From a bacterium (lineage in GTDB: Bacteria; Sysuimicrobiota; Sysuimicrobiia; Sysuimicrobiales; Humicultoraceae), in the NCBI GenBank assembly GCA_041497675.1, contig JBGQGY010000033.1, positions 1 to 27,463 of the forward strand: a stretch of DNA of 27,463 nucleotides, written 5' to 3'. The position numbers were made by a program, and so were the translations under genes. The notes beneath the pieces are model-generated. The model made no database searches. It worked only from the letters and a program-made list of their open reading frames with translations, and was not told the origin of the DNA. Position 1 is the first letter of the stretch; each line of letters begins with the position of its first letter. Below, piece after piece: positions 2,786-9,925 of this stretch.

Positions 2786-4132
2786 TCAGCCGGCGTGTCG
2801 TTGTAGGTCTTCGTTCAACCGCTTGATACTTGCAGCCAAATAGGCGTCCTGGCGTAGGGCTTCTCGCACCCGCCGGCAGGCGTGGATGACAGTCGTATGG
2901 TCGCGGCCCCCAAACTCTTCGCCGATCCGCGGCAGAGAGGCTTCGGTGAGTTCGCGCGCGAGATACATGGCGATCTGGCGAGGGAACGCGACGCCTTTCG
3001 TCCGGCGCTTTGCGCGCATTTCTTCCGGACCGATCCCAAAAAACTCAGCCACAGCGAGTTGGATGGCCTGGATAGTTACCACGCGTGCGCGAGCGGGCGG
3101 CAAGAGATCACGGAGGACGTCGGCGGCAAGATCGACGGTGACAGAAGCACGCGTCAGGGAGGCATACGCGACCACACGGACAAGCGCTCCCTCAAGCTCG
3201 CGGATGTTCGAATGAATGCGTTGCGCGATAAACTCGGCGACGTCATCGGGTACAGGGATCCGTTCCATCTCCCCTTTCTTGCGGAGAATAGCAATGCGCG
3301 TTTCGAGGTCGGGCGGCTGGATATCCGCGATCAGCCCCCACTCAAACCGGCTTCGAAGCCGGGCTTCAAGTGTCGGGATCTCCTTCGGGGGACGATCGGA
3401 GGTAATAATGATCTGACGGCTCGACTCGTGTAGGGTGTTGAACGTGTGGAAAAACTCCTCCTGCGTGCGTTCCTTCCCGGCGAGGAACTGGATATCGTCA
3501 ATGAGGAGTACGTCAACGTGCCGATACCGCTGGCGAAACTCGAGGGTCTTGTCGTCCCGGATAGCGTTGATGAGTTCGTTGGTAAACTTCTCGCTGCTAA
3601 TATATGCGACCCGAACAGCGCCACCATCAGCAAGAACCCGGTGCCCGATTGCTTGGAGGAGGTGCGTTTTCCCCAGGCCAACGCCGCCGTAGATGAACAA
3701 GGGATTATAGGCCCGCGCCGGCGCCTCGGCGACGGCAGTAGCGGCGGCGTGCGCGAAGCGGTTGCCTGCACCGACGACGAACGTTTCAAAGGTGTACTTC
3801 GGGGATAGATGTAGACTGTCCCGGTTGCGAAGCAAAGGGACAGATACGGACTGCACGGGTGGCGCGGTCCGCGGGGCATCGGCAACGGTAATTTGAACGT
3901 TGAGCGGGCGCCCGCCCGCCACCGAGAGCGCAGTTCGCACGGTGCCGAGGAGGCGTTGCTCGACCCACTCTTTGGCGAACCGATTCGGGACAGCCAGAAT
4001 GAACGTGTCCCCCTGTAGCCCGACTGGCCGCATGATCTTGAGGAACGACTCTAGAGTCGGCTTGTTCAGCTGGCCTTCAATGTGCCGCAGAGCCTCTGCC
4101 CAGAGCGTTGTCGGAGGTACATCAATCGACAC
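2786..4132 (-). CDS. dnaA: Chromosomal replication initiator DnaA
   Basis: YTFETFVVGAGN, YNPLFIYGGVGLGKTHL, LLIDDIQF, RLRSRFEWGL, NIRELEGAL, GGRDHTTVIHA; RBS GAGAGGAG. Confidence 0.99.
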   Translation of the reverse strand: MSIDVPPTTLWAEALRHIEGQLNKPTLESFLKIMRPVGLQGDTFILAVPNRFAKEWVEQRLLGTVRTALSVAGGRPLNVQITVADAPRTAPPVQSVSVPLLRNRDSLHLSPKYTFETFVVGAGNRFAHAAATAVAEAPARAYNPLFIYGGVGLGKTHLLQAIGHRVLADGGAVRVAYISSEKFTNELINAIRDDKTLEFRQRYRHVDVLLIDDIQFLAGKERTQEEFFHTFNTLHESSRQIIITSDRPPKEIPTLEARLRSRFEWGLIADIQPPDLETRIAILRKKGEMERIPVPDDVAEFIAQRIHSNIRELEGALVRVVAYASLTRASVTVDLAADVLRDLLPPARARVVTIQAIQLAVAEFFGIGPEEMRAKRRTKGVAFPRQIAMYLARELTEASLPRIGEEFGGRDHTTVIHACRRVREALRQDAYLAASIKRLNEDLQRHAG

Positions 4133-4176: not shown

Positions 4177-4968
4177 CTACGCCTTGAACACCTCGTCGAG
4201 GCGGGCCACGCCCTCCTCGGTAAGTGTGCGCTTACCGCGTCCCTTCCCGGTCAGCAACCCTAAGGCTTGTAACGCCAGCAATTCCCGGTAGGCCGTACTG
4301 TGGCTGATATCCAGCTCTTTGGCTACGGACGTGGGTCCGGCAGCGCCAAGCTCGGCGATGAGCAGCAGGACCTTCTTCTGGCGGGGGGAGACTTCGAGAC
4401 GGTGCACGGGAACGTCCGCCGCGAGGGGGGTGGCACCGGCAGTGTCACCCCGCAGGCTGAGGGTCACAACGGTACCGCGATCGAGGTTGTCTTCGATGGT
4501 TAGGGTGCCGCCAAGAAACCCCAATTGTTCCTTCGCAACCGGTAGGCCGCTCCCCACCCCGCGGATCAGGCGACGCATCTCGGCCGTCGCCGTAGAAAAG
4601 CCCGGGAGGAGAGCGCGCTGCTTGTCTGCAATCCCCGGCCCCTGGTCTGAGATACGGATGGTATTGCCGTTATCGAGAATAGTCACAGTCGCGTTCTGAA
4701 ACAGCGCATGGATGAGGTTCTCAACGACCTCGCGAATAACCACATAGGGAACTTTGCCACCCCGCTCGTGTGATGCGGCGTATGTGCGCGCAGCGATCTC
4801 GCCAACCAGCGTATTGAAACTGTCGCCACGGAGGGACGTGACCTGCGGTTCCGCGACAAGAGAGTCATACACGGCCAGCCGGACCTCTGGCCCTTCGGTG
4901 CCGACGGAGGACGCCGACGGCGCCCGCCGCTCCTCGATCAAACGGGCGATGAGTTCTTGGATGGACAT
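4177..4968 (-). CDS. GHKL (HATPase_c) ATPase/kinase domain fused to a C-terminal winged helix-turn-helix; function unknown
   Basis: N-box REVVENLIHA, G1 DQGPGI, GFST, G2 GVGSGLP, GTVVTL; C-terminus SPRQKKVLLLI...GPTSVAKELDISHSTAYRELLALQALGLL...GKRTLT. ATG at 4968 follows a GGGGGAG RBS (the ORF track start is 5004). Confidence 0.85.
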   Translation of the reverse strand: MSIQELIARLIEERRAPSASSVGTEGPEVRLAVYDSLVAEPQVTSLRGDSFNTLVGEIAARTYAASHERGGKVPYVVIREVVENLIHALFQNATVTILDNGNTIRISDQGPGIADKQRALLPGFSTATAEMRRLIRGVGSGLPVAKEQLGFLGGTLTIEDNLDRGTVVTLSLRGDTAGATPLAADVPVHRLEVSPRQKKVLLLIAELGAAGPTSVAKELDISHSTAYRELLALQALGLLTGKGRGKRTLTEEGVARLDEVFKA

Positions 4969-5083
4969 CGCTCCCCCGGCTGTTGGGTAACGATTGTCTA
5001 GCATGACGAGAGACTCCTACCACGGCTGACCAGCACCGCCCGAGTTCACGATGATCCACGGGCGGTCACGCACGCGGCAGTGC

Positions 5084-8268: not shown

Positions 8269-9045
8269 GTGCCGCGCATCATTGCCATCGTCAACCAGAA
8301 GGGCGGGGTCGGGAAGTCCACGACGGCAGTAAATCTCGGCGCCTGCCTGGCAGGGGCCGGCCACCGGACCCTGCTCGTCGACCTCGATCCTCAAGCAAAC
8401 GCCACAAGCGGGCTGGGAATGCCCCGGGACCGAGAATCCGGATCGGTTTATGACCTGTTGCTTGGTGAGGCCACGCTGGCCGAGTGTGTCATTTCGACCG
8501 CGGTACCCAACTTGGACATCGTCCCCAGCACCATCAATCTCGCCGGCGCCGAAGTGGAGATGGCCGGTATCGCGGGGCGAGAGACGCTTCTACGCACCGC
8601 CATTGCCGGCGCTTCCTACACCTTTGTCTTATTGGACTCCCCCCCTTCTCTCGGGCTGTTGACAATCAACGCGCTGACGGCTGCGTCTGAGGCCCTGATC
8701 CCACTCCAGTGCGAGTACTACGCGCTTGAGGGACTGACACAGCTCCTCCAATCCGTCGAGCTGGTCCGCCGGCACCTCAATCCTTCCCTTGAGGTCAGTG
8801 GGGTGTTGTTGACCATGTATGATTCCAGGACAAACCTCTCGGATCAGGTGGCCTCCGAGGTGCGTCGGTTCTTCGGTGAGAGGGTCTACAACACCGTCAT
8901 TCCCCGCAGCGTTCGTCTTGCCGAGGCGCCGAGTCATGGCAAGCCGATAACGGCCTACGATCCAGACTCACGGGGCGCCAAGGCCTATCTTGAGCTCGCC
9001 AAAGAGGTGATCGCTCGTGGACACCAACTCTCCTCTGCCCCCTGA
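8269..9045 (+). CDS. parA: Chromosome partitioning ATPase ParA/Soj
   Basis: NQKGGVGKSTT, DLDPQAN, DSPPSLGLLT, PLQCEYYALEGL, RLAEAPSHG. Likely start GTG 8269; the track ORF extends upstream into rsmG. Confidence 0.96.
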   Translation: MPRIIAIVNQKGGVGKSTTAVNLGACLAGAGHRTLLVDLDPQANATSGLGMPRDRESGSVYDLLLGEATLAECVISTAVPNLDIVPSTINLAGAEVEMAGIAGRETLLRTAIAGASYTFVLLDSPPSLGLLTINALTAASEALIPLQCEYYALEGLTQLLQSVELVRRHLNPSLEVSGVLLTMYDSRTNLSDQVASEVRRFFGERVYNTVIPRSVRLAEAPSHGKPITAYDPDSRGAKAYLELAKEVIARGHQLSSAP

Positions 9046-9925
9046 GTCTCCGCGAAACACCCGCGGCAAAGCGCTGGGCCGTGGCCTGGCCGCACTGATC
9101 CCTGGGGCCGGGGCATTCCAGGGCCACGCCACCATGGAGATTCCTGTGGACCGAATCCGACCCAACAGTCTTCAGCCGCGCGCGGAGATGGACGGGGCGG
9201 AACTTCGGGACCTGGAAGCGTCCATCAGGGAGCAGGGGGTGCTGCAGCCGGTGCTCGTCAGACCCACCGCCGATGGGTATGAGTTGGTCGCCGGGGAGCG
9301 CCGATGGCGGGCCGCGATGGCTGCTGGGCTGACCAGTGTTCCAGCGGTCGTGAAGCCGTTTGACGACCTTGGCGCGCTGGAGGCCGCTCTGGTGGAAAAC
9401 CTCCAACGGGAGGATCTCAGCGCCCTGGACCGGGCCCGGGCATACCGGCGGCTAACTGAAGAGTTCGGTCTCAGCCAGGACGCGGTCGCGAAACGCGTCG
9501 GGCGCAGCCAACCGTCGATTGCGAACACACTCCGACTATTCGCCCTCCCCGACGAGGTTCAGAGATCTTTGGACGCGGGTAGGATCTCAGAGGGTCATGC
9601 CAGGGCGCTCCTTTCGATACGCGACCAACGCAGGCTATTGGCCATTTGGAGGGCCGTCGAGGAGAGGGGGCTGTCTGTTAGGCAAACTGAATCCGCAGCA
9701 AAACGCCTGACTATTTCACGTGAAATAACCAGTGGGATGACGTCAGGAGCAGGAAGAATAGAGATCAAAAATATCGAACAAACCATATCAGAAAAGATCG
9801 GATCACCGATACGAATCGTGACGTCAAGATCCGGAAGGGGAGAAATACGGATATCCTTCTTCTCTCCGGCCGACTTTGACCGCCTACTGGCAGCGTTGGG
9901 TGTAGAGACTCAAGGGGCCCGGTGA
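9017..9925 (+). CDS. parB: Chromosome partitioning CTPase ParB/Spo0J
   Basis: LGRGLAAL ParA-activating peptide, GERRWRA CTP motif, ENLQREDL, HTH GRSQPSIANTLRL, GHARAL. Confidence 0.96.
   Translation: MDTNSPLPPESPRNTRGKALGRGLAALIPGAGAFQGHATMEIPVDRIRPNSLQPRAEMDGAELRDLEASIREQGVLQPVLVRPTADGYELVAGERRWRAAMAAGLTSVPAVVKPFDDLGALEAALVENLQREDLSALDRARAYRRLTEEFGLSQDAVAKRVGRSQPSIANTLRLFALPDEVQRSLDAGRISEGHARALLSIRDQRRLLAIWRAVEERGLSVRQTESAAKRLTISREITSGMTSGAGRIEIKNIEQTISEKIGSPIRIVTSRSGRGEIRISFFSPADFDRLLAALGVETQGAR
9712..9727. promoter_or_regulatory. parS: parS-like 16-bp perfect palindrome TATTTCACGTGAAATA inside parB
   Basis: Perfect inverted repeat with a 14/16 match to TGTTTCACGTGAAACA; origin-proximal and intragenic in parB, as in Bacillus spo0J. 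Confidence 0.82.

Follow-up and report, generated by a model that had tools for sequence, protein, structure and literature searches.

The window analysed here (the whole stretch of 27,463 nucleotides) covers an origin region: recF, dnaN, and dnaA lie on the minus strand, followed by yidC, jag, rsmG, parA, and parB. The origin region is marked by dnaA (positions 2786..4132, minus strand), and DnaA-box matches fall at positions 2716, 2774, and 5188 (the scan returned 4 matches against 0.44 expected). Directly upstream of dnaA is a gene with a HATPase_c domain (4177-5004, minus strand), which occupies the same place in the relatives checked from three families (f1, f5, and f7). On the plus strand, parA (8269..9045; assigned from an AAA_31 match and its sequence) encodes a Soj-type ATPase, and parB (9017..9925; assigned from domain and profile matches) encodes a chromosomal ParB of 302 amino acids with ParB_N, HTH_ParB, and ParB_C domains. 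The protein scores 176.9 bits against TIGR00180, above the cut-off of 58.45, and 224.7 against the Noc model TIGR04285, below the cut-off of 315. Its LGRGL ParA-binding peptide (9074..9088, plus strand) follows the LG-R/K-GL motif described in an excerpt of PMC12704722, and its GERRWRA stretch (9293..9313, plus strand) is the CTP-binding motif GERRxRA as given in part of PMC7333895. The protein thus combines the features looked for in a chromosomal ParB: three domains, an origin-side parA-parB, both motifs, and a 16-bp palindrome near the origin. The genome (G000; 3.97 Mb in 272 contigs, 98.6% complete) holds this TIGR00180 match only, and also encodes SMC; public RNA runs contain only small shares of the window.

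The ParB helix-turn-helix (HTH) aligns without gaps to that of Caulobacter ParB 6T1F (GKSRSHVANTMRLLALP...TAGH against GRSQPSIANTLRLFALP...SEGH), giving Q/T/A/G at the specificity positions 173, 179, 184, and 201 (Caulobacter numbering, used below unless a residue of this protein is named). Gln165 (codon CAA, 9509..9511, plus strand) corresponds to Caulobacter Arg173 and Noc Gln158, the reader of the outer base (PMC7383237); Thr171 (9527..9529, plus strand) and Ala176 (9542..9544, plus strand) correspond to positions 179 and 184, and neither is the permissive Lys/Arg; and Gly193 (codon GGT, 9593..9595, plus strand) occupies the inner-base position, Gly201. The same residues read QKKR in annotated Noc proteins of Priestia and Latilactobacillus, and QKGR in a third, unannotated protein. 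A contig from a public run that spans parB shows 40 differences, and none of the 39 listed falls in the Gln165 or Gly193 codons or in the site described next.

That site is an A-type parS palindrome, TATTTCACGTGAAATA, at 9712..9727, which lies within the parB coding sequence (where it encodes T-I-S-R-E-I), 5,580 bp from the dnaA start and two mismatches from canonical parS, TGTTTCACGTGAAACA. Re-reading the sequence reproduced the two codons, the palindrome, and the gapless Q-T-A-G alignment of a preliminary description of this DNA, which had also called the palindrome the only parS-like one; this holds in the window at up to 3 mismatches and in the genome at up to 2. In the window, TATTTCACGTGAAATA is the sole match at ≤3 mismatches and has zero mismatches, while a ≤3-mismatch match arises in 29 of 100 shuffles. 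Over the whole genome no other 16-mer comes within 2 mismatches of the A-type or canonical G-type pattern, six more lie at 3, and the expected number of exact copies is 3e-5 under an order-3 Markov model. The genome-wide count of the two types, which the description had proposed as a check, thus stands at one A-type site, origin-proximal, and no other match to the canonical G-type pattern at ≤2 mismatches. Separately, one 16-mer found at two contig ends (C18:28-43 and C184:21-36) is one mismatch from an NBS-like pattern; similar words occur in several f1 genomes, and it is probably part of a repeated element. Because the canonical pair joins Arg173 to an outer G and here Gln meets an outer A, we file this ParB and its site as a variant rather than as a canonical pair.

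To place the pair in its lineage, we consider 94 genomes of the phylum (likely Sysuimicrobiota; one order, seven families), most of them fragmented metagenome assemblies. The probable placement, CSP1-3/Sysuimicrobiota, is suggested by the presence of one order only (PMC11604079) and by several close homologues that carry the NCBI name 'Armatimonadota bacterium'. A ParB match was found in 83, in 84 copies, and all 84 loci were inspected; the additional copy in G057, an Arg ParB that does not cluster with the phylum, was excluded, giving 83 loci. For the first 30 loci only flanks of 1.5 kb were covered, and genome-wide pattern scans of 61 and then 94 genomes added few sites among the matches listed. 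A site is present at 83/83 ParB loci. By family, f1 and f2 carry Gln..Gly at positions 173 and 201 (46 loci), f3 and f5 carry Gln..Ala (13), and f4, f6, and f7 carry Arg..Gly (23); the ParB of a single genome, G003, reads Pro-Thr-His-Gly. The outer base of the site follows the residue: Arg goes with G in 23/23 genomes, Gln with A in 58/59 (one is mixed), and Pro with C/T in one. Counted by half-site, after exclusion of five degenerate matches that lay away from the slots in which sites recur (three of which had an outer G in Gln genomes), Gln pairs with 157 A and 1 G, Arg with 60 G and 0 A, and Pro with 4 T and 2 C. The co-variation predicted for relatives in the preliminary description, Gln with an A-site, thus extends through the phylum.

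The inner base varies with residue 201. It is A in 108/114 Gln..Gly and 60/60 Arg..Gly half-sites, and in 0/44 of those from Gln..Ala genomes (32 T, 10 C, 2 G), so that in the thirteen Gln-x-x-Ala ParBs the inner base has changed too; the pairing of Ala201 with inner T/C is absent from the published code. In all 13 Gln..Ala genomes the intragenic site is gone and sites occur only outside that slot: TATTTCTCGAGAAATA or relatives of it stand 25-120 bp upstream of parA and at or just behind the end of parB (for example G045 L047:2904 and 4558, and G048 L045:2019 and 3755), with one or two matches per genome, at par loci, and with the exact Bacillus NBS in G045, G048, and G093. The PTHG locus of G003 (C1:58213-59615, L046) has likewise lost the intragenic site and has three sites upstream of parA, CCTTCCACGTGAAAAG twice and GTTTTCACGTGAAAAC once, which are all three core matches of that genome; with their C/T outer bases they form a third outer-base code, seen in one genome only. 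G009, assembled in four contigs, has a single core match, which is the intragenic site.

A few matches depart from this pattern. Perfect or near-perfect canonical G-type sites lie off-locus in two Gln genomes (two in G019, one in G068), on contigs that hardly resemble the genes of G000, one of them at 55% G+C, and contamination is their likely source; a one-mismatch G-type match also occurs elsewhere in two Gln..Ala genomes. G-type dominance near this origin, or Gln relatives with G-type sites, had been named beforehand as evidence that would speak against recoding, and apart from these few matches we encountered neither. In G057, a foreign Arg-type parAB follows native rsmG and a native site at a contig end (C21:1289-3042), and the native parAB begins another contig (C38:1038-2685), an arrangement explained either by DNA inserted at parA or by a chimera in the assembly. 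Taken over the lineage, we regard the recoding of the ParB/parS pair as real at the level of compared sequences.

Since the palindrome is in frame in 46/46 Gln..Gly genes, it could in principle merely reflect conservation of an ISREI linker peptide. The codons make this explanation barely credible: the intragenic ATT and CGT are each kept in 46/46 genes, while control codons nearby are spread over their synonyms, and the six site codons of the G000 parB have a joint probability of 4.6e-7 under genome codon usage. The encoded amino acids, by contrast with these fixed rare codons, vary (E/G/A and I/M/T), and further A-type sites lie outside parB in 6/46 Gln..Gly genomes. The invariant codons and the sites outside the gene show that selection acts on the DNA. 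Variation among Gln..Gly sites is mostly at the outermost and fifth positions (the remaining positions being partly fixed by the search pattern); these are the places where canonical ParB is tolerant, since according to a portion of PMC5450999 it accepts symmetric changes at 1-16 and 5-12 and nowhere else. On the protein side, the other DNA-contact residues (Q162, N178, R181, and H202) are invariant in the phylum's ParBs.

These observations make it very probable, as judged from sequence, that the window holds a chromosomal ParABS locus whose Gln ParB loads at the A-type palindrome in its own gene, the predicted single centromere. Extrapolating from known ParB biology, Gln165 would make the hydrogen bond to the outer adenine that Gln158 makes in Noc, CTP would close the ParB clamp and allow spreading, and ParB would stimulate ParA and recruit SMC. 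It is very unlikely that ParB binds the site mainly as an operator or roadblock to regulate parAB, with segregation depending little on it: such a role would suit a site within parB in G000 and Gln..Ala sites upstream of parA and just behind parB, but ParA, the ParA-binding peptide, the CTP motif, and SMC are all retained, the Arg families have a canonical site in the same slot, and a single parS is often enough, according to part of PMC7333895. A sigma-70 scan of one Gln..Ala locus, a weak test, returned no promoter-like match. Also very unlikely is that the Gln ParB lost or relaxed specific binding, leaving the palindrome as a relic or to be read by another protein. Such a loss would agree with the failure of QTAG in Caulobacter ParB and with the single site in most genomes; it is hard to square with a site base that follows the ParB residue through four states, with the invariant DNA-contact residues, with the single intragenic layout shared by the Arg families, and with profile searches that found no second ParB or Noc above cut-off in G000 or five relatives.

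Loading of ParB at the palindrome nonetheless meets a difficulty in the specificity code itself. The preliminary description had presented an outer A with the parS core as what the code predicts; the base is indeed as predicted, but the code also predicts binding failure for QTAG. Because the engineered QTAG in Caulobacter ParB bound 0/16 sites (Jalal 2020, PMC7383237), the missing lysines, which the description had pointed out, are a surprise and not a footnote. Their absence, read directly at Thr171 and Ala176, extends to the whole phylum, where 0/84 ParB copies have Lys or Arg at 179 or 184. Gln is universal among the 120 closest database proteins, of which 42 read QTAG; three carry Arg at 184, and position 179 is basic in none. 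Breadth beyond the phylum came from 149 more distant cluster representatives and named loci from a plasmid collection: 145 of the 149 have Arg173 and none has Gln, with Lys, Pro, Val, and His once each (outside ParBs with Pro, Val, His, or Lys at 173 are P0188, P0192, P0269, and P0179). A related-locus scan of genome contigs returned one close locus. R173 and G201 have been called absolutely conserved in extant ParB (PMC7383237).

The authors of the engineering study considered that other residues probably contribute (PMC7383237). It is conceivable, though we hold it only tentatively, that the protein background offsets the lost Lys179/184, with Glu200, Arg168, and a Lys/Arg kept at 171 as candidates. 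Position 200 is Glu192 in this protein (9590..9592, plus strand; Ala200 in Caulobacter, Glu185 in Noc); Glu200 is common to the phylum's ParBs (83/83) and to Noc, whose E185 is drawn in the Fig. S2 contact scheme, and also occurs in 49/149 outside ParBs, 47 of them with Arg173. Arg168 is missing in the Gln..Ala families. Given that Glu200 is common in Arg ParBs and Arg168 is absent from Gln..Ala, neither alone explains the rescue, and Glu200 is not established as the compensating change. Residue 171 is Lys/Arg in 55/59 Gln ParBs and non-basic (Gly, Ser, Val, or Leu) in 23/23 Arg ParBs (f4, f6, and f7); as the sole compensating change it was rejected, Lys171 being present in the dead Caulobacter variant.

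Phages provide a comparison chosen by site and not by residue. Exact TATTTCACGTGAAATA occurs in 69 loci of a viral collection, of which 5 hold a ParB, and 5/10 multi-site viral records searched hold one, for seven distinct ParBs overall (L197, L202, L209, L222, L240, L249, and L251). Gln173 and Arg179 are common to all seven, and residue 201 is Gly in 2 and Ser in 5. Each protein's own gene contains an A-type site, between the HTH and helix 6. The position of this intragenic site differs from that in the phylum, and the phage ParBs fall outside the phylum's clade. Some of the phage ParB-like proteins lie in very long open frames, and several of the phages have 2-4 exact copies. As far as sequences can tell, the phage ParBs support the rule that Gln pairs with adenine, and because they obey the permissive rule through Arg179, they sharpen the phylum's exception.

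As the genomes are kin, the 83 loci collapse to far fewer events: about four independent coupled changes appear to be involved (two Arg/Gln, one Gln to Pro, and one Gly to Ala). In RpoB+RpoC trees (FastTree with 59 rows; IQ-TREE LG+G4 with 26 rows), the Arg family f7 branches first, the Arg family f4 groups with the Gln..Ala families f3+f5 (97/99), and the Gln..Gly families f1+f2 form the other arm (97/97). Holding all Gln/Pro rows together was rejected (p-AU 0.0145) in a test that used distant outgroups and no mixture model and was set up after the tree was seen. This tree needs two Arg/Gln changes and one to Pro, and the ParA tree four changes in all. The RpoBC, ParA, and ParB trees disagree in their deep branching and f6 has no rpoB; Gln may have been gained or may reflect reversion. 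In the ParB tree, computed after masking of the specificity columns and the ISREI segment, the phylum is one clade (0.986), with one outside protein nested within it, far from the long Noc branch.

That separation bears on the claim that this ParB is a natural ParB/Noc intermediate, which stands in sequence space and fails historically: because the phylum's ParBs group by themselves, at a distance from Noc, the recoding is best described as convergence. A true evolutionary intermediate that acquired Gln from noc by transfer or recombination is highly improbable, with K179, K184, and R201 absent and a ParB-type N-terminus, and despite the shared Gln173 and Glu200 and the exact NBS in some relatives. 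The accompanying claim, that the protein is a segregation ParB and not Noc, is borne out by the retained LGRGL, the parA-parB context, and the score below the TIGR04285 cut-off as well as by the clade. Where Noc reads QKKR this ParB reads QTAG; its first 14 residues contain 1 large hydrophobic against 4-5 in three Noc proteins, a crude count that shows no Noc-type N-terminal amphipathic helix; and Noc-like sites spread over the chromosome were not found in G000 (one site) or G009 (one core match).

Compared with canonical ParABS systems (Caulobacter ParB 6S6H/6T1F, Thermus Spo0J 1VZ0, and Bacillus Spo0J, all with parS TGTTTCACGTGAAACA), the locus shares the gene order and origin-side position, domains, and motifs given above, Gly201, and a 16-bp palindrome with the same core, but differs in that Gln replaces Arg173 and an outer A replaces G on both arms. 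The intragenic slot reads VSRET in 10/149 outside ParB representatives and ISREI in the G000 ParB. With Noc/NBS of the Bacillota (6Y93; QKKR) it shares Gln173, the outer A, and Glu at 200, and the Gln..Ala relatives add TATTTCTCGAGAAATA and the exact NBS; unlike Noc, it has a ParA-binding peptide in place of the Noc N-terminus and one to three origin sites rather than genome-wide ones, with no duplication. In the engineered PtoN series, QTAG was dead, and QKAG, QTKG, and QKKG changed specificity to a site that combines parS and NBS features (Jalal 2020, PMC7383237). The four-residue code of PtoN1 is identical to ours, and the natural site has the outer A preferred by Q173 variants; unlike its engineered counterpart, natural QTAG is common (42/120 close homologues) with its site kept under selection, and the natural order, Gln without an earlier Lys/Arg, is the reverse of the proposed path. 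Burkholderiales secondary-replicon parS and Pseudomonas T5C parS, as covered in part of PMC5450999, are likewise natural cases in which ParB and a 16-bp palindrome diverged together; those involve chromids and plasmids or a tolerated position, whereas here the main chromosome changed a directly read position. A search of the openly available literature turned up no description of a chromosomal ParB that naturally has Gln173. Among the papers listed as containing the exact sequence, all look unrelated from their titles, and the matches probably come from shRNA hairpins.

On balance we lean towards a history in which a segregation ParB repeatedly recoded the primary centromere across the phylum, without duplication or permissive Lys/Arg, taking a Gln-first route to the Noc site, one excluded by the deep mutational scan, through an unrecognised background residue such as Glu200. 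The steps would be a change from Arg/G to Gln/A at least two times (or a single change followed by reversions), one from Gln to Pro together with C/T, and one from Gly to Ala together with an inner base of the NBS type. Chromosomal parS with Arg173 has been treated as universal, canonical parS being called a faithful chromosome marker in the relevant part of PMC5450999, and the study of the passage from ParB to Noc is a standard example of "permissive mutations first". Here, a genotype that is dead in an engineered ParB is kept by nature in dozens of species with a matching site. Searches for canonical parS may overlook such putative centromeres, and the recoding predicts ParB/site pairs that would not cross-react. 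RxxG, QxxG, QxxA, and PxxG form a natural series in which to ask how the rest of the protein permits specificity to switch in a system that is essential and has no duplicate.
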